Part shown: positions 28,358 to 63,508 of the stretch, piece by piece
Layout: each line of letters opens with the position of its first letter
How positions within the stretch are numbered: position 1 is the stretch's first letter
Assembly (NCBI GenBank): GCA_964611805.1
Contig: CAZTBG010000001.1
Span: 1 to 63,564, forward strand
DNA length: 63,564 nucleotides
Direction: 5' to 3'
Origin: an uncultured Dehalococcoidales bacterium
GTDB lineage: Bacteria > Chloroflexota > Dehalococcoidia > Dehalococcoidales > Fen-1064
Notes under the pieces: generated by a model
Told to the model about the DNA's origin: nothing
Databases searched by the model: none
The model's input: only the letters and a program-made list of their open reading frames with translations
Position numbers and translations under genes: made by a program

Positions 28358-28385
28358 AGTCGTGGTTTATTAATAATTCAATACG

Positions 28386-28484
28386 GATCTCCGAGTTGCT
28401 GTCTCTAAGGGCGCCCGCCTACGAGAGGCAAACGATAGGGTGTGAGGGGAAACCCTCTCGCCTCCCGTGTTTGGAAAGGAGAGC
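28386..28484 (+). promoter_or_regulatory. candidate Moco/W-co (molybdenum/tungsten cofactor) riboswitch aptamer
   Basis: 5' CTCCGAG ... GCCTCCC ... TGGAAAGGAG 3'. CTCC (28389-28392) can pair with GGAG (28478-28481). These blocks match my memory of the Moco RNA motif. The location upstream of tungstate-transport and moaA genes fits. Confidence 0.5.
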
Positions 28485-28650
28485 TGCTATGAATCTAGAA
28501 GTACGTGCGCGCCCTATTATCCACCATTATCTTTCTCCCGCCTGTCGCCGTCTCCACTGCAGCCTGAGTCACCCCACCTGATAGGTCCACTAAAGGCACG
28601 GAGGCGGTAACTTACATTGAAACTACCAAATATAGAAAGGATATTTCGTC

Positions 28651-29553
28651 GTGCATATCAACACTAACCGCATGAAGATAATTATCAGCACTCTAGCCGT
28701 TTTACTGCTGGTACTTGGCTCCCTGGGAGTGTTTACAGCCTGCGAGGAGTCGACGGCGGGCACAGTAGCCCCGAAGAAAGCCGTGCCGAGACTTAAGGTA
28801 GCGACCACCACCAGTCTCTACGATACCGGTCTCTGGGGATATCTGGAGCCTATGTTTGAGGAAGAGTATGGTGTCGGCATGGATATCCTGTACGCCGGTA
28901 CCGGCAAGGCGCTGGAATACGGGCGGAGAGGGGACGTAGACGTTATTACGGTCCATGCCAAAGCCCAAGAGGAGCAGTTCGTTGCCGATGGCTACGGCGT
29001 GGAACGGGTACCCTTTGCCTACAATTATTTCCTTATCGTTGGTCCGCAGGATGACCCGGCCGGCATCAAAGGCCTTACCCCTGAAGCAGCCTTCCAGAAG
29101 CTGATGGAAAACGGAAGTGGCACATTTGTTTCGCGGGGAGACGGTTCCGGGACGCATATCATGGAACAAAATATCTGGGCAGCCGCCGGCTATGATTACG
29201 AGGAGGTAAGGAACGCCGGTACCTGGTATGTCGAGGGTGGTCTGGGCATGGGGCCAACCCTGACGATGGCCAACGAGTTGGAGGCTTATACCCTGTCCGA
29301 CATGGGCACCTATCTCACTTACAAGGGCGATATTGACCTGGTGCCGATTGTAACCGAGGGCGATATACTGCTCAATGTTTATTCTGTGATTGCCGTAAAC
29401 CCGGAAAATGTACCCGTTACCAACTTGGAGATGGCTAACAATCTGATAGCCTTCCTCACCTCAGCGGAGATACAGGAGCTTATGGGTAAATACGGTGTCG
29501 AGGAATACGGGCTGCAGCTGTTCACTCCCTGCGCCGGTAACGAGCCTGAATAG
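28651..29553 (+). CDS. tupA: tungstate ABC transporter substrate-binding lipoprotein TupA
   Basis: Signal peptide plus lipobox LGSLGVFTAC. VATTTSLYDTGLWGYLEP and VSRGDGSGTH are TupA-type anion-binding motifs. GTG start with GAAAGGA RBS, or ATG at 28675. Confidence 0.85.
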   Translation: MHINTNRMKIIISTLAVLLLVLGSLGVFTACEESTAGTVAPKKAVPRLKVATTTSLYDTGLWGYLEPMFEEEYGVGMDILYAGTGKALEYGRRGDVDVITVHAKAQEEQFVADGYGVERVPFAYNYFLIVGPQDDPAGIKGLTPEAAFQKLMENGSGTFVSRGDGSGTHIMEQNIWAAAGYDYEEVRNAGTWYVEGGLGMGPTLTMANELEAYTLSDMGTYLTYKGDIDLVPIVTEGDILLNVYSVIAVNPENVPVTNLEMANNLIAFLTSAEIQELMGKYGVEEYGLQLFTPCAGNEPE

Positions 29554-43038: not shown

Positions 43039-43884
43039 CTACAAAACGGCTTCCCGGTGACGGGCACTGTGGCACTGGAAATTTATCGCGAGCGGCAGAC
43101 TGGCAATGTGGGCCGGCATCACTTCGGCATGGACAGCCAGGGCAGTCGTCCGGCCGCCAAGACCCATCGGCCCGATACCCAGGTCATTAACGCGTTCCAA
43201 AATTTCTCGCTCAAGCTCAGCAATCTCCGGGTCGGGGCTCGACTGTCCTAGCGGGCGAAGTAGCGACTTCTTGGCAAGCAACATTGTCATCTCGGCAGTG
43301 CCACCGATTCCCAGTCCAATAATTAAAGGTGGACAGGGCATGCCCCCCGCCTCGTCAACGGCCGTGACCACCGTCTCGATGATGCCATCCCTGCCCTGGG
43401 CTGGTTTGAGCATAGCCAGTCGGCTCATATTCTCAGCCCCGCCACCCTTCGACATAACCGTAATCCTGAGCCGGTCACCGGGCACTATTTCGGTATGGAG
43501 CACTACCGGGGTATTGTCGCCGGTGTTTATCCGAGCAGAGAAAGGCTGCCGGACCATGGATTTTCGCAGGTAGCCCTGAGTGTAGCCCTGTCTCACTCCT
43601 TCCTCAACGGCCGCATACAGTTCGCCTCCGACAATCTGAACGCCCTGTCCGACCTCAAGAAAAACAACTGCGGCTCCACAGTCCTGACAGAGCGGAAAGA
43701 GGCCTTCTCGTGCAATCTGTGCGTTCTCAAGCAACTCCCCGAGGACGGCACGGCCCAATGGCGACTCCTCGATCTGCTCCGCCTGTTTTAAGGCAGCCAG
43801 AACATCATCGCCCAGTTCATAATTGGCCTCCTGGCAGAGTCGGGCAACCGCTTCGGTGATTTTACTGGCTTCTATTTCTCTCAT
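43039..43884 (-). CDS. class I fumarate hydratase (or tartrate dehydratase) alpha subunit
   Basis: 281 aa. PLCQDCG, GGGAENMS, GIGGTAE and LAINFQCH. Confidence 0.85.
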   Translation of the reverse strand: MREIEASKITEAVARLCQEANYELGDDVLAALKQAEQIEESPLGRAVLGELLENAQIAREGLFPLCQDCGAAVVFLEVGQGVQIVGGELYAAVEEGVRQGYTQGYLRKSMVRQPFSARINTGDNTPVVLHTEIVPGDRLRITVMSKGGGAENMSRLAMLKPAQGRDGIIETVVTAVDEAGGMPCPPLIIGLGIGGTAEMTMLLAKKSLLRPLGQSSPDPEIAELEREILERVNDLGIGPMGLGGRTTALAVHAEVMPAHIASLPLAINFQCHSARHREAVL

Positions 43885-43900: not shown

Positions 43901-43984
43901 CCTCCCCCTCGGTCGCCCTCCCTTTGTCAAGGGAGGGCGAAGATTATCCTTTATAGGGGCTGCACCCCTCCAAGACTCCCGCTT
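43901..43984. repeat. family-1-type double-hairpin repeat
   Basis: cgccctcccttt-gtca-agggagggcg hairpin, then ataggggc-tgca-cccctc. The leader cctccccctcggtc is shared with 24091. Confidence 0.7.
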
Positions 43985-44032
43985 TATTATTTCGCTAAGA
44001 GCAAACTGAGATATCCTCGCGCCGTTGCTCAG

Positions 44033-44049
44033 TTGCGCAATTACGTAAT
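44033..44049. repeat. 8-bp iteron site A (AGTTGCGC AATTACGT)
   Basis: In-phase octamers of consensus AWTTRCGY, located just downstream of the hydrolase gene. Confidence 0.7.
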
Positions 44050-44056
44050 AAAGAAC

Positions 44057-44986
44057 CTATTGTTCCAGTGCCTCAATTCTCCTTTGTAGCCACGCTGAGA
44101 CTATCTCCAGGATACGCCTATCAACTGGCTGCCGTGTCTGCTTTTTATAAGTCGATATGGTAGGCTCACCCTCCTCAACCCTGAGGATATGGGTGACATT
44201 CGGTAGTTCATGAGATTCGAAATCCCCTTTTATCAGCTCTCCCATTCGTATCAGGTCAGCCGGGTCAACCTGTATATCCTTCGACCCTGTTATCGCCAGC
44301 ACAGGCACATTTATTTTGGCTAAATCTGGACCCGGGTCATACTCCAGAAATTCTCGCATCCATTTTGCGTTTATCTTTGCAATAAGCTGTACGCGATACC
44401 AGTCCTTTGAAGAACGCCTTATTTTGTCGATTTGCTTCTGTTGAGATTTCAGCACGTTGATTCGGAATAACTTGATAATCCATTTGTTGAGGCCTCTCAA
44501 TCCCTTCACCACCTGCTCAGCCTGCCATTTCAGTGTCTCCTCACCCCGCTTGGCGGCACCGGCAATCAGTATCACTCCAGCGACATCAGCACCTTCACCT
44601 GCCAGCCTGATAGAAATCATTGCCCCTTCGCTGTGTCCCAGCAGAAACACCAATCCAGATTTAACCGCTACATGAGCCTTGAGCTGACCCAAAATAGCCA
44701 ATGCATCAGTCGCATTGTCGTAGAAACCGGTCGCCCAATAGTTGCCCTCACTAGCGCCAACACCCCTCTTGTCATACCTGAGCGTAGCAATACCCTGTCT
44801 AGCTAGATATTCGGCAATCTCTCGGAAGGCATTTATGGCCAGTTTCTTGTGATTCTCGTTCCTGTCAACTTGTCCTGAACCGGGTATCAAGAGAACCGCT
44901 GGGAAAGGCCCCCCTGAATCAGGCATTGCCAGTGTGGCCGAAAGAGTGAGTGTTTCAGAGACTAACTTGACGTCTTCTTCTACCAC
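44057..44986 (-). CDS. alpha/beta hydrolase
   Basis: 309 aa. Nucleophile elbow GHSEGA. C-terminal H in NVTHIL. Confidence 0.8.
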   Translation of the reverse strand: MVEEDVKLVSETLTLSATLAMPDSGGPFPAVLLIPGSGQVDRNENHKKLAINAFREIAEYLARQGIATLRYDKRGVGASEGNYWATGFYDNATDALAILGQLKAHVAVKSGLVFLLGHSEGAMISIRLAGEGADVAGVILIAGAAKRGEETLKWQAEQVVKGLRGLNKWIIKLFRINVLKSQQKQIDKIRRSSKDWYRVQLIAKINAKWMREFLEYDPGPDLAKINVPVLAITGSKDIQVDPADLIRMGELIKGDFESHELPNVTHILRVEEGEPTISTYKKQTRQPVDRRILEIVSAWLQRRIEALEQ

Positions 44987-45071
44987 TAGAGACCTTTCTG
45001 GTTGCTAGATTTCTATTACAGCAAGGGGAGAGGAAATTACTAGGCCAGCTAACATATTTACCCTAATGCTC

Positions 45072-45090
45072 AATTGCGCAACTACGTATT
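45072..45090. repeat. 8-bp iteron site B (AATTGCGC AACTACGT ATT)
   Basis: Shares GCTCAnTTGCGCAAnTACGTA with site A, so the hydrolase gene is flanked by about 22-nt direct repeats. Confidence 0.7.
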
Positions 45091-45180
45091 TACTCATAGG
45101 TCCGAAAAGCGCAGACCCAGTCCAGTCTCATCACCCCTATCAGCTCCAGCACCGCATGAGAGCCATCCCAAGAATGAGCA

Positions 45181-46293
45181 TTATAAAAACGGGAAGTCAT
45201 ATCCGGTAAGTCCTAGTTCCTCAACCAGTTGTCTAATGTCGTTTTGCACAGATTCATTGACCGGGACTCCCTTATCCTTTCGGTCCAACCATGCCAGATA
45301 TTCCTTCTCACCAGCGGTGTAGATTCGCTCGCAACCAGGGGCTTTCTTTGACTCACGGATTGTCCTCAGGATTTCCCCGGTGGTCTTCTTAAATGTCTCC
45401 AACTCCGTGAATTCGGCAATGTTAATGGCTATGAAGAAATGCCCCAAGTGGTAAGGTTGACGTTTGCCATCACGGTCGAAGCCCGACAGTCCCTTTAAAA
45501 AAGCGCCTGACTGGAGTGCTGCAGAGAGGATTTCGACAATAGTTGCGTAACCATAGCCTTTGTAACCAGCGAGACTTTCTCCAATACCACCCAAAGGCGT
45601 CAGCGCAGCGGTACCTTTAACCAGGTCGACGAGTACTTGATGGGAGTCTGTTTTAGGCTTACCATCCTCCCCTATTACCCATCCTTCGGGCAGCTCCTTG
45701 CCAACCCGGGCATAGACTTCGATTTTACCCCTCTGGGTGATTGATGTGGCGCAATCCAGCACAAAAGGAAACTCCTCATCAGTTGGTATGCCAAAGGTAA
45801 GCGGATTGGTACCCAGCATATTTTCGACCCCGAATGTTGGAGCTATGGAGGGTCGAGCATTGGAACCAGTAATGCCTATCATGCCGGCCTCGATAGCCAT
45901 CAGAGCATAATAGCCAGCGATACCGTAGTGAGTAGAGTTGCGAACGGTGACCATCCCCAAGCCATATTCCCTCGCCTTCTCTATAGCCATTGTCATGGCT
46001 CTTTTTGAAATAACATGTCCCATGCCGTCATGACCATCTATCACTGCCGTAGTACGCCCTTCCCGGACAATTTCGAAATTGGTAATCGGATTTTGAATGC
46101 CTATCTTTATACGGTCATAGTAGATGGGCTTCAAACGACTGATGCCGTGGGAGTCTATACCCCTTTTATCTGAAGTAATCAACACTTCCGCGCAGATTCT
46201 AGCATCTTGTTCAGGGACCCCAACGCCTTTAAAAACATCCACCATAAAATTTTCCATGGTGTCAAAACTAATCCAGCAAATTTGATCACTCAT
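45181..46293 (-). CDS. Ldh2-family (malate/L-lactate/sulfolactate dehydrogenase family 2) oxidoreductase
   Basis: 370 aa. KRGIDSHGISRL, NSTHYGIAGYY and GYKGYG. Confidence 0.8.
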   Translation of the reverse strand: MSDQICWISFDTMENFMVDVFKGVGVPEQDARICAEVLITSDKRGIDSHGISRLKPIYYDRIKIGIQNPITNFEIVREGRTTAVIDGHDGMGHVISKRAMTMAIEKAREYGLGMVTVRNSTHYGIAGYYALMAIEAGMIGITGSNARPSIAPTFGVENMLGTNPLTFGIPTDEEFPFVLDCATSITQRGKIEVYARVGKELPEGWVIGEDGKPKTDSHQVLVDLVKGTAALTPLGGIGESLAGYKGYGYATIVEILSAALQSGAFLKGLSGFDRDGKRQPYHLGHFFIAINIAEFTELETFKKTTGEILRTIRESKKAPGCERIYTAGEKEYLAWLDRKDKGVPVNESVQNDIRQLVEELGLTGYDFPFL

Positions 46294-46459
46294 CGCAAAA
46301 CCCCATCCGAATTCGTTATGAACGTTTCAATTCTACTGCTTTTACCGGAGTTCAGCAATACCCTAATGGGCAGGAGGCACCGGACACCAGTGCAATTACC
46401 ACATCCTGATAATAGGGGAAAGCGTGACGGCGCGACCTGGCATGAGTATTTCCTCATTA

Positions 46460-46486
46460 GCGCATCTACGCAATTACGCATATAAT
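46460..46486. repeat. 8-bp iteron site C (ATTAGCGC ATCTACGC AATTACGC)
   Basis: Three in-phase units in the ldh2/fur divergent spacer. Confidence 0.65.
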
Positions 46487-46551
46487 ACTTTACGGACAAC
46501 GGTTCTCCAAGCAACGTCTGCTTGACATTTCCATCTTATCTATACTAGAGT

Positions 46552-46576
46552 GTAATTGATAATATTTTTCAATTAC
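46552..46576. promoter_or_regulatory. Fur-box-like operator immediately upstream of the fur-family gene
   Basis: Perfect 8-9-8 palindrome GTAATTGA-N9-TCAATTAC. It contains TGATAATATTTTTCA, a 12/14 match to the 7-1-7 Fur box TGATAATnATTATCA. It ends 8 nt before the ATG. Confidence 0.55.
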
Positions 46577-46584
46577 CATAAGAG

Positions 46585-47043
46585 ATGAGACCTTCGGTTA
46601 AAGGCATCTACATCACCCTCAGGCGGCACGGTTACAAGCTTACCCCGCAGCGGCGTGCCGTGGTTCTCGCCATCACCTCCAGCCAGGACCACCTCACTCC
46701 GGCGGCCATATTTAAGAAGGTCAAACAGTCCTACCCTGGCATTGGGCTGGTGACCGTCTACCGAACCCTCAAGCTACTGGCAGAACTGAACCTAATCTGT
46801 GAACTGCACACCGGTGACAACTGTCCCAGCTACATTGCAGGAACGTCACAACACCACCACCACCTCGTCTGCTCCGGCTGCGGAAAGGTTGTTGACTTTG
46901 CCAGCCCCCGCCTCATTGAGCACGATGTCGCTGAACTCGAAGGAAGGCTCAGCCGTGAGAGCGGTTTCCGCATAGACGACCACCTGCTCGAATTCACCGG
47001 TCTCTGTAAGCTCTGCCAGAAAGCTCAGGCGTCATCGGTATAA
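46585..47043 (+). CDS. Fur family transcriptional regulator (Fur/Zur/PerR type)
   Basis: 152 aa. Winged-helix LTPQRRAVV..VYRTL. HHHHLVCSGCGKV and CKLCQ are the structural Zn CxxC pairs. Confidence 0.9.
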   Translation: MRPSVKGIYITLRRHGYKLTPQRRAVVLAITSSQDHLTPAAIFKKVKQSYPGIGLVTVYRTLKLLAELNLICELHTGDNCPSYIAGTSQHHHHLVCSGCGKVVDFASPRLIEHDVAELEGRLSRESGFRIDDHLLEFTGLCKLCQKAQASSV

Positions 47044-47052
47044 GCAAGAGAG

Positions 47053-47676
47053 ATGTTCAAGCGCATTGTCACTGAACTAAGACACCACATTCCCTTCACC
47101 GGTCTTGGCGCAATTACCGGCATTATAGGTGCCGTTATTATCGTGGCAATCGGGGCACTTCCTTCAGTGAGTCAAGCTTCAGAGACGGTTTTTTACGTGC
47201 TGCATCCGCTCCACGTGGTACTCAGCGCCGCTGTTACCACCGCCATGTACCGCAAATATACACACGGGCAGCTCTTTCCAGCAATTCTGGTGGGCTACTT
47301 TGGTTCAGTTGGCATAGCCACCCTGAGCGACTCGGTGGTCCCCTACATCGGGGAACTGCTCCTCAACCTCCCTCACGCCGAAGCCCACATCGGCTTCATC
47401 GAGGAGTGGCAGATAGTGAACCCGGCGGCGTTTCTCGGTATCGCTATCGGTTTTTGGAGGTCCAACACCAAATTCCCGCATGCCGGACACGTACTCGTCA
47501 GCACCTGGGCATCGCTTTTTCACATCATAATGGCACTCGGTGAAACGGTGGCATGGATTCAGTTCCTGCCCATCTTCATCTTCCTCTTCCTGGCCGTGTG
47601 GCTGCCGTGCTGCCTGAGCGACATAGTCTTCCCGCTGTTGTTTACAAAGGGGAATGTACCCATCGAAGAAGGCTAA
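47053..47676 (+). CDS. His-rich polytopic membrane protein, putative metal transporter
   Basis: 207 aa, about six TM segments with membrane-embedded His (LHPLHVV, HAEAHIG, HAGHV, FHII). It lies 10 nt after the fur-family gene. The function is inferred from context only. Confidence 0.5.
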   Translation: MFKRIVTELRHHIPFTGLGAITGIIGAVIIVAIGALPSVSQASETVFYVLHPLHVVLSAAVTTAMYRKYTHGQLFPAILVGYFGSVGIATLSDSVVPYIGELLLNLPHAEAHIGFIEEWQIVNPAAFLGIAIGFWRSNTKFPHAGHVLVSTWASLFHIIMALGETVAWIQFLPIFIFLFLAVWLPCCLSDIVFPLLFTKGNVPIEEG

Positions 47677-47938
47677 ATGCCCACTCGAGACCAGGTAGAT
47701 ACTACGCAGGCCGCACTGTAGAGATGCCAATTATTGATTGGGCAGTAGGAAGAGATTCCTGGTAAACAAAAGGGCGTTAAAAATCGATTCTGAGCGTTCT
47801 CAGGGGTATTGAATAAACAAACCCGGCCAACAATATCCGCCATTCGACTCGTTTTTCACTTCGCGCAGTATCCCGCCAGGAAACCGGAGCAGAGGCTTGA
47901 ATTACTACCATCCGGTTAGTGTGTATCAGCGTATTTAC

Positions 47939-48277
47939 TTATTTACGCAATTGCGTAATTACTCTATTAAGGAGTTCCTCATCGGTCTTGACACCCCGCA
48001 CATCCAGTCCGCTGGTCCGGAAAGCCTTGACCATTGCCTCGATAAGCTTGGTCTTGCTCAGTTTCTTGCCACCACTGAACTTGGCTGTGGATGCCAGAGA
48101 CTCCAGGTATGCGTCCTCACCACGGTTAAGGAAGACGGAGAGCTTGATTCGGTTTGTCTCCGGCTCCGGGACCGTCTCTTCCCTTTCCGGTGGAGTCCGT
48201 GCCGGCCGTTCCGAGCCAGTGAGACGGTCCAATGCACCCCCATATGCAAGCTCCTCAGTAATGCGAACTCTCTTCAT
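47939..48277 (-). CDS. small RHH-like DNA-binding protein, putative ParA partner (ParG/omega-type)
   Basis: 112 aa. Basic N-terminus MKRVRITEE, a Pro/Glu-rich linker, then the beta-strand/helix/helix pattern IKLSVFLNRGEDAYLESLA..KTKLIEAMVKAF. The start overlaps the parA stop by 4 nt. Confidence 0.55.
   Translation of the reverse strand: MKRVRITEELAYGGALDRLTGSERPARTPPEREETVPEPETNRIKLSVFLNRGEDAYLESLASTAKFSGGKKLSKTKLIEAMVKAFRTSGLDVRGVKTDEELLNRVITQLRK
47943..47962. repeat. 8-bp iteron site D (ATTTACGC AATTGCGT AATTAC); perfect 16-bp palindrome TTACGCAATTGCGTAA
   Basis: Overlaps the last codons and stop of the RHH-like gene. Confidence 0.75.
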
Positions 48278-49050
48278 TTCATCACCTCTTCTACCAGTAG
48301 CCTGTAGGCGTTGGCTCCGTCCGACTTCGGGGCATACGTCAGGATTGACTCTCCGGCTGCCGGGGCCTCCTTGAAACGAACACTTGTGGGAATCGTAGCC
48401 TCAAATATTTTTACCCTGCTGCCAAAAGCCTTCCGGGTAACCTCACTGACCTCGCGGCTATGCAGGGTACGGGAACTGGTCATAGTAAGCAGTATTCCAG
48501 AAACCTCTAAGGTCGGGTTTAGCTTCTCTTTCACCCGATTAATCGTGTTGAACAGCAGCCCAACCCCTTTCATCGCCAGGAAATCGGCCTGTAAGGGAAT
48601 AATCACGCGGTCGGCTGCGGCCAGGGCATTGATTGTCATCAAGCCGAGGCTGGGCAGGCAGTCTATCAGAATAAAGTCATAATGGAACCGCACCGGCTGG
48701 AGCATGTCTCTTAGCATTATCTCCCGGGTGAATGCCCCAACAAGGTCGAGCTCAGCCTGCGACAGCTCTATGTTGGCCGGAACCAGGTCAATAAGCGGGT
48801 TGCTCGTATGAATGATGACGTCACGCACTGTGAGACTACCGTCACCCCTGATGATGCTCGCCAGGGCATCGTAGCCGGTACGTTCCAGACGCTCCGGGTT
48901 ATGCCCCACACTGATGGTAAGGCTGCCCTGCGGGTCCCAATCAACCAGAAGCACCCGCTTGCCATGCTCGCTCAGGCCCTGGGCCAGTGCCGCCGCCGTG
49001 GTCGTCTTACCGACCCCGCCTTTCTGGTTGGCGATACAGATGACAGGCAT
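48274..49050 (-). CDS. parA: Soj/ParA-type partition ATPase
   Basis: Deviant Walker A NQKGGVGKTTT, LLVDWDPQGS, ILIDCLPSLG and IPTSVRFKEAPAAGESILTY. The start is chosen at MPVICIANQ (49050). The longer track ORF (to 49128) runs through iteron site E. Confidence 0.9.
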   Translation of the reverse strand: MPVICIANQKGGVGKTTTAAALAQGLSEHGKRVLLVDWDPQGSLTISVGHNPERLERTGYDALASIIRGDGSLTVRDVIIHTSNPLIDLVPANIELSQAELDLVGAFTREIMLRDMLQPVRFHYDFILIDCLPSLGLMTINALAAADRVIIPLQADFLAMKGVGLLFNTINRVKEKLNPTLEVSGILLTMTSSRTLHSREVSEVTRKAFGSRVKIFEATIPTSVRFKEAPAAGESILTYAPKSDGANAYRLLVEEVMK

Positions 49051-49086
49051 GTTTTCGATTTCCCTCTGGGCGGATTCTGCACCATT

Positions 49087-49110
49087 GTAACGCAATTGCG
49101 CAATTACGTC
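49087..49110. repeat. 8-bp iteron site E (GTAACGC AATTGCGC AATTACGT)
   Basis: Located 37-60 nt upstream of the preferred parA start, in the parA/pyrD divergent spacer. Confidence 0.75.
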
Positions 49111-49143
49111 AATACTCACTTGCGCCATTTTCTCTCAAGGCAT

Positions 49144-49172
49144 TGACCTGAGCAGCCAGTCCACGTACAATA
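49144..49172 (+). promoter_or_regulatory. candidate sigma70-type promoter of pyrD
   Basis: TTGACC, 17 nt, TACAAT. AAGGAG lies 5 nt before the TTG start. Confidence 0.4.
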
Positions 49173-49205
49173 GTCCTGACACGCAAATCCCGATAAGGAG
49201 TCACC

Positions 49206-50126
49206 TTGAATCTATCAGTCCAGCTCGCCCCCGGGAATGCTAAAGGCCTGCTCCTGGCCAATCCGGTGATGACTGCCTCCGGCACCTTCGGCTACGGCAT
49301 TGAGTATGAGAACCTGTTTGATATCCAGAGGCTGGGGGCTATCGTCTGCAAAGGGACCACCCTTGCGCCCAGAGAAGGTAATCCCCAGCCCCGAATCGTG
49401 GAGACTGCCAGCGGTGTCCTTAATTCCATCGGGCTGCAGAATATCGGTGTTGACGCCCTGATAGCCGAAAAGGCGCCTATCTGGGCAGGCTGGCGCGTGC
49501 CGGTCATCGTCAACATCGCCGGTGAGACGGTTGATGACTACGCCAGTCTGGCCAAGCGGCTGGACGGTGTGGCCGGAATCAGCGGCCTGGAGGTGAACAT
49601 CAGCTGCCCCAATATCAGGGCAGGCGGGGCCGAGTTCGGTGCCAGTCCTGACACCGCCGCCGCTGTAACCGCCGTCGTAAAAAAGACGACCTCTCTGCCT
49701 ATCATGGTCAAGCTCACCCCCAACACCGGTGACATCGTGGCTGTGGCTGTAGCTGTGGCCGGGGCGGGTGCCGATGCAATCTCACTGATAAACACGCTTA
49801 AAGGCATGGCGATAGACATCAGGACACGTAGGCCGATACTGGGCAACATATATGGTGGTCTGTCCGGTCCGGCTGTCAAGCCGGTGGCACTCCACATGGT
49901 CTACCAGGTAGCTGGAGCCGTGGACGTGCCCGTCATCGGTTCCGTCGGTATTCGCACCGCTGACGATGCCATCGAGTTCATCATGGCTGGTGCCAGCGCC
50001 GTCCAGGTAGGAAGTGCCAATCTGACCAGCCCACGGGCAGCTCTCGATGTCCTCGAGGGAATCGAGCGGTTCATGCAGGATGAGAGGATAGGGGACATCA
50101 CCGAGCTTATCGGGTCAGCAAGGTAG
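49206..50126 (+). CDS. pyrD: dihydroorotate dehydrogenase, class 1 catalytic subunit
   Basis: 306 aa. NPVMTASGTFG, GLEVNISCPN, PIMVKLTPN and IGSVGI. Confidence 0.9.
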   Translation: MNLSVQLAPGNAKGLLLANPVMTASGTFGYGIEYENLFDIQRLGAIVCKGTTLAPREGNPQPRIVETASGVLNSIGLQNIGVDALIAEKAPIWAGWRVPVIVNIAGETVDDYASLAKRLDGVAGISGLEVNISCPNIRAGGAEFGASPDTAAAVTAVVKKTTSLPIMVKLTPNTGDIVAVAVAVAGAGADAISLINTLKGMAIDIRTRRPILGNIYGGLSGPAVKPVALHMVYQVAGAVDVPVIGSVGIRTADDAIEFIMAGASAVQVGSANLTSPRAALDVLEGIERFMQDERIGDITELIGSAR

Positions 50127-50152
50127 TAATTGCGCATTTGCGCATATGAGCA
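50126..50152. repeat. 8-bp iteron site F (AATTGCGC ATTTGCGC ATATGAGC)
   Basis: Located at the pyrD stop. Paralogous to site G, exactly 1200 nt downstream. Confidence 0.75.
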
Positions 50153-50182
50153 GATACTCTAATTCCCAATCCTGAGTTTTAT

Positions 50183-50300
50183 ATGGTCACAAGACTTTCT
50201 CAATCGCTGGTAGATACCCACGCTTACCCGGAAGTGAGAGAGTTTGACGCTGCCACAGTTGAGGTGATTACACAGGTTTGTAATCCCGACATTCGCATCC
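50183..50300 (+). pseudogene. decayed duplicate of the tatD 5' end
   Basis: Translation MVTRLSQSLVDTHAYPEVREFDAATVEVITQ parallels the intact TatD MTTETAGLLVDTHAHLDAGEFDADRDEVITR. The HxH metal motif is lost (HAY) and there is no TatD similarity further on. Confidence 0.75.
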
Positions 50301-50521
50301 AAAGTGTATTCGGCGTTCCTAAAAGAACGGATTGTGTTAATTTTAATTCGCGTGCTATAATTACATCGCCGCTGTTTATTACCGTAGGTCGTTTCGCATA
50401 TCATTCCTGTAGTCGTCGAAAAGCACAGGGCAAGCAGGGCCGGTATGACATGATTCAAAACATGATTAGTCTTGTGTAGTAGGATTATTTTACACTGAAT
50501 ATCAATACAGGGAGGTTCACG

Positions 50522-51235
50522 ATGAAAAAATGGGTATCTCTGGTCGCGGTAATGTCCTTGCTAATGCTGTCTTGCTCGAGTTTGGCTGCCTGCGGTGGCG
50601 AGAAAGCTGTGGGTGAGCAGGAAGAGGAGGAAGAAGAAGAAGAGGAGGAGGAGGAGGAGGAAGAAGAGGAGGAGGAAGAAGAAGAGGAGGAAGAAACACT
50701 ATCTGACATCCTGGCTCTGGGAATCAATCTACCCGCCGTACAATACGACCAGAGCATCACTGCTCCCGGGCAGGCAACGGTTGCAATGACAGTTTTCATG
50801 GAGGGGTCGAAGCTTCGGATTGAAATGGTTGCTGGAGGACAGACAACGATTCAGCTGATAGACTACGACGCTATGGTAATGTATATGTACATGCCAGCAC
50901 AGAGCATGGCGATGGAAATGGACATGAGCAGCTTTGGAGGGGTTGGCAGCAAAGCGGCTCAGGACATCGAACAGTATCATCCAACGGTTCTCGGTACCGA
51001 GACTCTGGACGGGAAGAGCTGCCTTGTCGTTAGATACACCTACTCCACCGCTCAAGGAACAGTAACCGTGAAGCAGTGGATATGGAAAGAGCACGGCTTT
51101 CCAATCCGTACTGAGACAACAGTCCAGGGCCAGTTAACGGTAATGGAGATAACAAATATAGTGTTTGGCGATATCCCGAACAGCATATTCGAGTTACCGG
51201 CAGGTGTCCAGATAATGGAGATGCCTGGCTCATGA
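50522..51235 (+). CDS. lipoprotein with a 25-residue poly-Glu linker and a LolA-like/DUF4367-like C-terminal domain (tentative)
   Basis: GGGAGG RBS. Signal peptide plus lipobox LSCSSLAAC. 25 consecutive GAR codons at 50621-50695. The beta-rich C-terminal domain ends FELPAGVQIMEMPG. The gene is AT-richer than its flanks. Confidence 0.75.
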   Translation: MKKWVSLVAVMSLLMLSCSSLAACGGEKAVGEQEEEEEEEEEEEEEEEEEEEEEEEEETLSDILALGINLPAVQYDQSITAPGQATVAMTVFMEGSKLRIEMVAGGQTTIQLIDYDAMVMYMYMPAQSMAMEMDMSSFGGVGSKAAQDIEQYHPTVLGTETLDGKSCLVVRYTYSTAQGTVTVKQWIWKEHGFPIRTETTVQGQLTVMEITNIVFGDIPNSIFELPAGVQIMEMPGS

Positions 51236-51280
51236 TGTAAAAGCTAGGCTACTCGAGAAAGAGGTAACTACACGAGATAA

Positions 51281-51500
51281 GAGGGGATAGGGGATATCAC
51301 CGAGCTTATCGGGTCAGCAAAGTAGTAACTGCGTAATTGCGCATATGAGCATCTGCTCTAAATCACAAATACTGAGTGCTAGATGACTACGGAGACTGCT
51401 GGTTTACTGGTAGATACCCACGCTCACCTGGATGCAGGCGAGTTCGACGCCGACCGTGACGAGGTGATTACCCGGGCACGTGATGCCAGCGTCAGTACAA
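51281..51500 (+). repeat. direct repeat copy 2 of the pyrD-3'/spacer/tatD-5' junction
   Basis: 51281-51326 is a remnant of the pyrD 3' end (GAGGGGATAGGGGATATCACCCGAGCTTATCGGGTCAGCAAAGTAG) with one extra C relative to the intact gene. The rest is the functional tatD 5' region. Confidence 0.85.
51326..51352. repeat. 8-bp iteron site G (AACTGCGT AATTGCGC ATATGAGC)
   Basis: Located 31 nt upstream of the tatD start. Confidence 0.75.
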
Positions 51501-52180
51501 TTATCACCGTCGGTACTGGCGTTGAGTCAGGCCACCGCTCAACCGAACTGGCGGAGCAGTACCAGGGCATCCTGGCAGTCATCGGTATTCACCCCCATGC
51601 CGCCAGCACCGCCACCGAGGCAGATATCACCGCTATTGCCCGGCTGGCCAAACATCCTAAAGTAGTCGCCATCGGTGAAATCGGGCTGGACTTTTACCGG
51701 AACTACTCACCCCGTGATAGCCAGTTCAGGACCCTGAAGTGGCAGCTCGACCTGGCAGCCCGGCTGGGCCTGCCGGTGGTCATCCACTGCCGACAGGCTC
51801 ACGAAGAGATGTTGAATGTCCTGCGCGACTGGACCGCCCGGCATAAAGAACGACAATCGCCCGGCGTTATCCACTGCTTCCAGGGCGATACCCGAACCAC
51901 CCGACAGTACCTGGAGATGGGATTCTACCTCTCCCTAGGCGGCTACATTACCTACCCCGCCAACAGCAACGCCCACGATGTTATCAGGAGCATTCCGGCA
52001 GACAGGTTGATAGTCGAGACCGACTGCCCATACCTGGCACCACAACATTACCGCGGTCGGCGTAACGAGCCAGCCTACGTGCGGTACACCGCCGAGGAAT
52101 TAGCCAGAATCAGGGGCGTCCCTTTCGAGACAATTGCACAAGAGACCACCGAGAACGCCCGCCGCCTCTTCGGCTGGTAG
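51383..52180 (+). CDS. tatD: TatD family metal-dependent deoxyribonuclease/hydrolase
   Basis: 265 aa. VDTHAHLD, IGEIGLDF, VVIHCR and IVETDCPYLAP. Confidence 0.9.
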   Translation: MTTETAGLLVDTHAHLDAGEFDADRDEVITRARDASVSTIITVGTGVESGHRSTELAEQYQGILAVIGIHPHAASTATEADITAIARLAKHPKVVAIGEIGLDFYRNYSPRDSQFRTLKWQLDLAARLGLPVVIHCRQAHEEMLNVLRDWTARHKERQSPGVIHCFQGDTRTTRQYLEMGFYLSLGGYITYPANSNAHDVIRSIPADRLIVETDCPYLAPQHYRGRRNEPAYVRYTAEELARIRGVPFETIAQETTENARRLFGW

Positions 52181-63415: not shown

Positions 63416-63508
63416 GGAGGGGTCGCATAGTTGGTCTAGTGCGGGCGCCTGCTAAGCGCTTGCCCTGGGAAACCGGGGTCGTGGGTTCGAATCCCACTCC
63501 CTCCGCCA
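63416..63508 (+). tRNA. tRNA-Ser (anticodon GCU), CCA encoded
   Basis: Acceptor GGAGGGG/TCCCTCC. Anticodon stem GGCGC/GCGCT with loop CTGCTAA. Long variable arm TGCCCTGGGAAACCGGGGTC. T-arm GTGGG-TTCGAAT-CCCAC. Discriminator G plus CCA. Confidence 0.9.

Follow-up and report, generated by a model that had tools for sequence, protein, structure and literature searches.

A stretch of 63,564 nt from an uncultured Dehalococcoidales bacterium (contig CAZTBG010000001.1, assembly GCA_964611805.1), here called the window, carries a parA gene, a gene for a 112-aa protein and, around this pair, seven arrays of short tandem repeats that we discuss as putative binding sites of the small protein. The arrays lie within 44.0-51.4 kb of the window, among genes for fumarase, an alpha/beta hydrolase, a dehydrogenase, a Fur-family regulator, a membrane protein, PyrD, a lipoprotein and TatD (Table 1). 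The DNA is chromosomal, as evidenced by a nuo operon, pyrD, fumarase genes, ybeY and a tRNA, and the orthologous locus in other genomes sits in chromosomes of 1.1-2.3 Mb and not on a plasmid.

Arrays of 8-bp units around the parA operon

Reading of 43.8-51.6 kb confirmed seven sites at the positions given by the original prediction. Their repeats had been described as two or three 8-bp units of AWTTRCGY. The repeats are real, but each array comprises 4-5 in-phase units, and the unit is better described as an AT-rich spacer plus a 4-bp box. We scored it as a 4-bp AT-rich spacer and a box of RCGY, GAGT/ACTC or GAGC/GCTC. The spacer is mostly AATT and the box usually RCGY, with GAGT/ACTC or GAGC/GCTC often found at the array edges. 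The perfect 16-bp palindrome reported at 47943-47958 is present as TTACGCAATTGCGTAA.

Using dinucleotide shuffles of the window as background, the palindromic form of the motif, TTRCGYAATTRCGYAA, yielded 13 matches with up to 3 mismatches compared with 1.20 ± 1.02 in the shuffles, and all 13 fell inside the seven sites. The register of the original prediction, AWTTRCGYAWTTRCGY, yielded 46 matches at the same tolerance compared with 7.9 ± 3.0 in the shuffles; 39 of them were within the seven sites and the remaining 7 each had 3 mismatches. Strict runs of at least 3 units were observed 6 times in the window (0.10 expected) and runs of at least 4 units 5 times (0.005 expected). No run of at least 3 units was found outside the seven sites in the 63.5-kb window, in accordance with the earlier claim that in-phase repeats are confined to this 7.3-kb stretch.

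For comparison we used the best 80 of 132 loci from a genome scan, all from Dehalococcoidia or Chloroflexota metagenome-assembled genomes. In every one of them the small-protein gene lies directly 3' of parA, and the DNA around the operon totals 897 kb. L006, L007 and L008 are the three genomes closest to the window. The motif was sought beside the orthologous gene pairs and found: in ~70 of the 80 genomes the parA promoter (TTGACG-CAATTGCGCAATTGCGC-TATAAT) has an array between its -35 and -10 hexamers. Alignment of 74 loci gave the consensus TrCGyAAnaGAGtATTGACGcAnTTgCGCAATTgCGcTATAAT upstream of parA, a sigma-70-type promoter in which five array units make up the spacer, the -35 hexamer and 20 bp further upstream. 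Ordinary promoters place no constraint on the spacer sequence. Here the spacer positions are almost invariant, even though the small proteins are merely 66-94% identical. In the window, array 5 sits across the parA promoter, with 18 nt left between its end and the -35 hexamer of pyrD, whose promoter (49143-49171) is divergent. The parA promoter array has the classic layout of an autoregulatory operator, and the predicted distance of 37-60 nt upstream of parA is correct relative to the conserved parA start at 49050, MPVICIANQKGGVGKT. An automatic gene call instead starts a 284-aa ParA at an ATG at 49128. Since the conserved promoter and array lie inside 49051-49128 of this longer open reading frame (ORF) and the conserved start is at 49050, the 284-aa call is probably wrong.

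A further array is spelled by the last codons of the small gene, AGA GTA ATT GCG CAA TTG CGY, and often runs past the stop codon. In the window this is array 4, which covers the last 8 codons and the stop codon at convergent gene ends. Among 60 homologues each of these codons is used in 70-100% of cases at the 3' end versus 4-35% elsewhere in the small gene: TTG for leucine in 37/53 cases versus 4%, CAA for glutamine in 80% versus 22%, GCG for alanine in 88% versus 17%, GTA for valine in 93% versus 19% and AGA for arginine in 70% versus 15%. A codon usage this far from that of the rest of the gene indicates selection on the DNA sequence as such. In one subclade, where the C-terminal tail is different, the 3'-end array is absent.

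In the 897 kb around the operon we counted 69 promoter, 41 3'-end and 35 additional arrays, with ~1.6 expected by chance. As a control, the nuoD region of close relatives (153 kb) held neither arrays nor 16-mer matches; ~5 arrays would be expected there at the density of the par flanks, but operons are frequent and intergenic gaps fewer. Nor were any found in 280 kb from distant organisms. The extra arrays are intergenic in 29 of 33 cases and adjoin functionally unrelated housekeeping genes, such as those for hydrolases, a major facilitator superfamily transporter, a ComM-like ATPase, methyltransferases and RsmE. One clade has an array 3-6 nt past a hydrolase stop codon, at a convergent gene end, that is kept in 7/7 genomes while the adjoining sequence has diverged. 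The arrays are non-random and conserved, occur in a promoter, are selected at the DNA level and cluster around the operon.

Most lineages have two arrays ~1.1 kb apart. Counting strict arrays, 32 loci have one, 32 have two and 6 have three, and among the 80 loci five or six are found only in L006-L008. The claim that sites bracket every gene block therefore holds for the window and its three close relatives but not elsewhere, as most Dehalococcoidia have one or two arrays. Judging from these loci, the cluster of 5-7 arrays is a genus-level expansion and not a general property.

Within the window, array 3 lies in the divergent intergenic region between the Ldh_2 gene and fur, separate from the fur promoter and Fur box. 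Aligned with L006-L008, it forms a conserved island with 25/38 invariant columns versus 5/41 in the flank, and a TATAAT-like hexamer beside it is, unlike the array, not conserved in these genomes. Array 2 lies in the gap that follows the Ldh_2 gene and precedes the hydrolase gene, and its short match to the array region of L008 is the sole homology in that variable segment. Array 1 is found 10 nt past the hydrolase stop codon and ~130 nt upstream of fumA, and homology between the window and L007 resumes exactly there. Arrays 1, 4 and 6 of the window, together with an array in each of L018, L025, L051, L055, L056, L064 and L071, lie 0-10 nt from, or across, a stop codon. This hugging of stop codons may just reflect short intergenic regions; a roadblock or insulator role at gene ends would also suit.

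Array 6 begins 2 nt after the pyrD stop codon and its paralogue, array 7, ends 25 nt upstream of tatD. Both belong to a ~170-bp segment that flanks an insert in two copies of 85% column identity. Each copy holds 44 nt from the end of pyrD, an array and ~70 nt from the start of tatD. Arrays 6 and 7 being copies, the seven sites, although correctly counted, represent six independent ones. The orthologous pyrD-tatD array is conserved as a single copy in L006 and L007. The 1.2-kb insertion is common to the window and L008 and absent from L006 and L007. Its insert (50261-51284) encodes a lipoprotein of DUF4412/LolA-like type whose long poly-Glu tract is at about 50620-50700, and the left copy of the duplication has left a tatD-derived stub ORF at 50183-50479.

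A Soj-type ParA and its putative small partner protein

ParA is a Soj-type Walker ATPase, and its stop codon overlaps the start of the small gene. Compared with solved structures, its best matches are chromosomal Soj/ParA proteins (6e-58 to 6e-46), including 8ray (6e-58), Thermus thermophilus Soj (8e-49) and Helicobacter pylori Soj (5e-47). It is distant from plasmid delta (5e-15), from type Ia ParAs and from SegA (7dut, 3e-16), and ParF was not recovered at 1e-10 in this comparison. The original prediction had paired a Soj-like ParA with a protein of ribbon-helix-helix (RHH) type and classed the locus as type Ib. The Soj assignment stands and the type Ib label does not: the protein is short (258 aa) and has no N-terminal domain, yet it groups with chromosomal Soj. 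What the locus does have in common with type Ib is its sites, namely a tandem-repeat array at the operon promoter in ~70/80 genomes plus a second array downstream, whose operator and centromere function we infer from position.

The small protein has 1546 homologues. Its residues 1-21 form a strongly conserved N-terminal peptide, MKRARITEELAYGSALDRLTG, followed by a variable Pro-rich linker (residues 22-43) and a conserved C-domain (residues 44-112) that opens with the invariant sequence IKLSVFL. This sequence alternates hydrophobic and polar residues in the manner of RHH ribbons, and the second helix opens with LSKTKLIEA (LSKTxLIxA in the family). An AlphaFold2 model built from an 88-sequence alignment reached a predicted local distance difference test score (pLDDT) of 87.8, with low confidence for the N-terminal part. 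It shows an extended segment at 43-50 and helices at 52-67, 75-89 and 99-111, which is the RHH order with one extra helix. A model from a shallow 21-sequence alignment (pLDDT 53) was unusable. PHROGs gave a weak match to a 'DNA binding protein' family (phrog_1725, E=0.005). As the predicted order of strand and helices fits but no search confirmed the fold, an RHH domain is plausible and treated here as likely, yet unproven.

In Pfam and NCBIfam searches the small protein showed neither a ParB_N/CTPase nor an HTH_ParB domain, and by this domain content it is not a ParB. The GERRxRA motif was found in no frame of the window or of the 80 loci, and canonical parS (TGTTNCACGTGAAACA, up to 3 mismatches) had 0 matches in the window.

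A search at 50% clustering returned one tight full-length family and ~130 distant relatives of 75-110 aa, which have only the C-domain in common with the family and mostly do not lie beside a ParA. Since the relatives P0132, P0140 and P0146 are not adjacent to a ParA, the C-domain alone is not diagnostic of partition. Another distant relative, P0137, follows a ParA that is 46% identical to that of the window. Its ribbon reads LKSAVFL, unlike IKLSVFL, and the DNA upstream of its parA has the same 4+4-bp register with TCTC/GAGA as boxes, in repeats of 32 and 40 bp that overlap the promoter. The ribbon and the box sequence thus change together while the geometry stays constant, which would be expected if the small protein reads the boxes, although this is a single comparison. 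The conserved ParA-binding motif of chromosomal ParBs is LG(R/K)GLxALL. The N-terminus of P0137, GKRASLEKGRGISILF, resembles this motif. The role of the motif in ParB is described in PMC12462528, where the CTP (cytidine triphosphate)-driven clamp and spreading of ParB are central to ParA activation.

In one locus, L090:199-2280, a homologous pair of ParA and small protein adjoins a convergent canonical ParB with ParB_N and HTH_ParB domains. The small protein has the ParB-like N-terminal motif SLEKGRGISILF, and the N-terminus of the ParB, MGAKKSFRKAKIPPLS..., is without an obvious LG(R/K)GL motif. The ParA-activating peptide may have moved from ParB to the small protein in L090.

A putative partition module, its alternatives and known systems

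We regard it as probable, with moderate confidence, that the arrays are binding sites of the 112-aa protein and that the locus is an autoregulated chromosomal partition module whose operator arrays double as a dispersed centromere. The original prediction had likewise proposed that the arrays are the cognate operator and centromere of ParA and its partner. The operator or cognate-site part of this proposal is well supported by the array in the promoter, the codon-kept 3'-end array, the enrichment around the operon and the same 4+4 geometry, with another box sequence, beside a distant homologous gene pair. The centromere part is more conditional: the small protein would be the factor that binds the arrays through its candidate RHH fold, would contact ParA and would act in segregation, and it seems to take the place that ParB usually has as centromere-binding protein.

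In such a module, dimers of the small protein would read the 4-bp boxes every 8 bp, like ParG on TP228, with a single dimer on each box and 32-40 bp of every array coated. The promoter array takes in the -35 hexamer and the spacer and reaches into the edge of the -10 hexamer, where occupancy would block RNA polymerase and make the operon self-repressing. The protein-coated arrays may form a composite centromere made of the promoter array, the 3'-end array and, in this genus, 4-5 more arrays over 7.3 kb. The N-terminal peptide on its flexible Pro-rich linker could then contact nucleoid-bound ParA-ATP and stimulate its ATPase, upon which the chromosome region would be moved by the usual ParA ratchet. 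Because the small protein is not expected to spread like the ParB CTP clamp, several arrays may build a larger partition complex, which is speculative.

Several observations weigh against a partition module of this kind. The small protein matched no family in Pfam or NCBIfam, and the Pfam RHH model was only found weakly in 2/88 relatives. Foldseek searches of its model against PDB and BFVD gave nothing significant and nothing with E below 0.6, and hhalign comparison of the family with ParG and omega was not significant. An hmmsearch of solved structures first gave nothing and later one weak match to the strand-helix-helix part of TTHA0139 (E=0.025); a Pfam scan of this TTHA0139 fragment had no match and we found no paper that mentions the protein. 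Since most Dehalococcoidia have so few arrays, a large multi-site centromere is no general requirement. The gene dnaA is located within 5 kb of the par operon in only 2/80 loci (L019 and L042), and the sparse intergenic DNA of the nuo control, pointed out above, makes the absence of arrays there less telling.

The main rival is an operator-only regulon, which we consider unlikely. Here the small protein would be a local repressor, the arrays would co-regulate parA, fur, the malate dehydrogenase gene, pyrD, tatD and fumA, and ParA would be unrelated to the sites. The best-conserved array is unquestionably within a promoter, other arrays are readable as weak sigma-70 promoters (TTGCGC-17-GATACT at array 6, TAGCGC-17-TATAAT at array 3) and omega-like RHH centromere-binding proteins double as global repressors (PMC2441792). 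However, the promoter-like hexamer at array 3 is not conserved with its array, and arrays 4 and 1 as well as the hydrolase-stop array lie at convergent gene ends or in coding sequence. The neighbouring genes have no common function and vary between genomes, while the arrays persist in place. Such positions, next to unrelated genes and maintained despite gene replacement, suggest that the arrays are more than operators. Furthermore, ParA partners typically have such a conserved N-terminal peptide with a flexible linker, which a simple repressor would not need.

The arrays could also be bound by some other factor, for example a nucleoid protein, ParA itself or a roadblock or insulator protein, with a merely coincidental link to the 112-aa protein. 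This is improbable as arrays and gene pair co-occur in 80 genomes, the arrays flank exactly the parA/small-gene operon and, in the L090 lineage, the box sequence shifts along with the ribbon residues of the small protein; a transcription roadblock would nevertheless suit arrays 1, 4, 6 and the hydrolase-stop array, which abut stop codons. We give even less credence to the arrays being boundaries of recombination or cassettes, that is, sites or hot spots for the exchange of gene blocks. Arrays 3 and 1 do mark breaks in homology with the closest genomes, the genes in between are not the same (Ldh_2 and hydrolase in the window, Ldh_1 malate dehydrogenase in those genomes) and the 1.2-kb insertion is bounded by duplicated array-bearing segments. 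Yet breakpoints must be intergenic, and intergenic DNA here nearly always holds an array. Nor is the array the edge of the duplication, which continues for another 45-70 nt on either side of it. No recombinase, integrase or transposase was found among the scanned genes in or beside the cluster, which in this respect is unlike a cassette array, and recombination leaves both the class-wide promoter array and the codon-maintained array unexplained. A chance or low-complexity origin, for which nothing more than the AT-richness of intergenic DNA can be quoted, is excluded by the run statistics for 4 or more units and by the conservation of orthologous arrays in other genomes.

In site architecture, the proposed module comes closest to ParF-ParG-parH/OF of TP228. 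There, each ACTC box takes up one ParG dimer, the boxes are set apart by 4-bp AT-rich spacers and the operator is also used as a centromere (PMC3130281). Degenerate 4-bp boxes, 4-bp AT-rich spacers, an 8-bp period and mixed orientation are found in both systems, and some boxes of the window are literally ACTC/GAGT. Another shared trait is the overlap of the arrays with the promoter of the operon; the TP228 operator can also serve as centromere, a role proposed for the window by analogy. The small partner of TP228 acts on the ATPase with a flexible N-terminal tail (PMC3130281), and the sequence of the window protein is consistent with such a tail. In contrast to TP228, the window system is chromosomal, its ATPase is Soj-type and not ParF-like and its dominant box is the palindromic RCGY. 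Where TP228 has 8-12 boxes per array, the window has 4-5, in arrays scattered over kilobases. Between the small protein and ParG no similarity was detected at sequence or profile level, and the model of the small protein shows one additional helix at the C-terminus.

The closest system in logic is delta-omega-parS of pSM19035, where the promoters bound by omega are the parS sites (PMC2441792). Several promoter-embedded arrays serve as both operators and centromeres, and a small RHH protein with an N-terminal tail recruits a Walker ATPase (PMC2441792). However, the omega repeats are 7-bp unspaced heptads in a plasmid system, whereas the window arrays lie partly outside promoters; delta is as distant from the window ParA as given above, and the small protein shows no similarity to omega.

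Among chromosomal systems the closest analogue is archaeal SegAB, in which one operon encodes both the ParA-like ATPase and a small RHH protein, and the specific sites bound by the latter cluster near that operon (bioRxiv 10.1101/2025.02.07.637068). The window locus resembles it in the pairing of a ParA-like ATPase with a small, here putative, RHH protein and in having sites around its own operon. SegAB differs in being archaeal and in its 13-bp palindrome TCTAGA-S-TCTAGA, which is mostly intragenic and present in dozens of sites chromosome-wide, and no SegB chain was among the solved-structure matches of the small-protein profile at E up to 10. By this comparison the resemblance is functional and architectural only. 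With Soj-Spo0J-parS the window system shares an ATPase of the Soj clade and a partner gene immediately downstream of parA; it differs from it by a partner without ParB domains and by tandem box arrays in place of single 16-bp palindromes.

Overall, the locus is best described as a hybrid in which a Soj-type ParA of the chromosomal kind is combined with repeat arrays and an adaptor in the style of type Ib. According to reviews, every bacterial chromosomal centromere-binding protein is a helix-turn-helix (HTH) ParB (PMC5002424), and we found no described Dehalococcoidia par system, nor a paper on such an arrangement, in the literature. As a tentative idea, which we hold with less than even confidence, the Soj-type ParA of Dehalococcoidia may now work with a ~110-aa adaptor of an undescribed family instead of the CTP-dependent ParB clamp. 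This adaptor would combine a ParB-like ParA-activating peptide with a probable RHH domain that reads ParG-style arrays, and dispersed arrays, of which this genus has up to 7 over 7 kb, would substitute for ParB spreading in building a large partition complex.

If true, a whole bacterial class would pair a Soj-type ParA with a small adaptor that has no ParB CTPase domain and uses plasmid-style arrays. ATPase and adaptor would then be swappable between 'chromosomal' and 'type Ib plasmid' designs. The system would be a bacterial counterpart to archaeal SegAB and, among chromosome partition systems of bacteria, the first whose centromere-binding protein is neither HTH nor spreading. It would be a natural test case for whether many discrete arrays can replace ParB spreading. 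Being compact, with two genes and sites of 32-40 bp, it would be testable in vitro or by heterologous plasmid stability, which matters as these organisms are hard to grow. With >1500 members and no Pfam or NCBIfam model, the 112-aa family deserves annotation.

Gene context and further observations

Table 1. Coordinates of genes, arrays and other features at the par locus of the window.
Feature	Position	Strand	Description
Fumarase alpha (fumA)	43039-43884	-	
Array 1	44015-44046	.	4 units: GCGC, GCTC, GCGC, ACGT
Alpha/beta hydrolase	44057-44986	-	
Array 2	45064-45095	.	4 units: GCTC, GCGC, ACGT, ACTC
Ldh_2-type dehydrogenase	45181-46293	-	
Array 3	46440-46479	.	5 units: GAGT, CCTC, GCGC, ACGC, ACGC
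Fur-family regulator	46585-47043	+	
Membrane protein	47053-47676	+	
Array 4	47925-47964	.	5 units, one degenerate; contains palindrome 47943-47958
112-aa protein gene	47939-48277	-	No Pfam or NCBIfam match
parA, 258 aa	48274-49050	-	AAA_31 at 1.7e-58
parA promoter	49084-49112	-	TTGACG, 17-nt spacer of array units, TACAAT
Array 5	49086-49125	.	5 units: ACGC, GCGC, ACGT, ACTC, GCGC
pyrD	49206-50126	+	
Duplication, left copy	50090-50260	+	pyrD 3' end, array 6, tatD 5' stub
Array 6	50128-50159	.	4 units: GCGC, GCGC, GAGC, ACTC
DUF4412 lipoprotein	50522-51235	+	
Duplication, right copy	51285-51455	+	pyrD 3' remnant, array 7, true tatD start
Array 7	51327-51358	.	4 units: GCGT, GCGC, GAGC, GCTC
tatD	51383-52180	+	

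Between fur and fumA the window shows a non-orthologous gene displacement. Its segment 44057-46293 encodes an Ldh_2-family malate/lactate dehydrogenase and the alpha/beta hydrolase, and at the same place the closest genomes encode a canonical Ldh_1-family malate dehydrogenase (L006:9858-10886, L007:9903-10847, L008:9939-10910). The loss of homology with these three genomes coincides with the two arrays, 3 and 1, that flank the displaced genes. A Fur-box-like inverted repeat, TAATTGATAATATTTTTCAATTA, lies at 46553-46575, directly upstream of the gene for the Fur-family regulator; L006-L008 have kept it, and it stands apart from array 3. A GC-rich hairpin, CGCCCTCCCTTTGTCAAGGGAGGGCG, lies at 43917-43942, in the leader that separates array 1 from the fumA start codon; it is not terminator-like as no T-run follows it on the fumA strand. 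Rfam and tRNA scans of 43.8-51.6 kb gave no match, leaving an RNA explanation unsupported.

A search for an origin in the window found a GC-skew that tracks gene orientation and gives no usable signal, one DnaA-box match and no dnaA. In L019 and L042, dnaA is located ~4.5 kb downstream of the small gene, which hints at an origin-proximal position in some lineages. Elsewhere in the window, we found a tRNA-Ser(GCT) at 63416-63508 and a molybdenum/tungsten cofactor riboswitch (Rfam RF01055, 76 bits) at 28377-28497 on the + strand, upstream of an ORF at 28651-29553.

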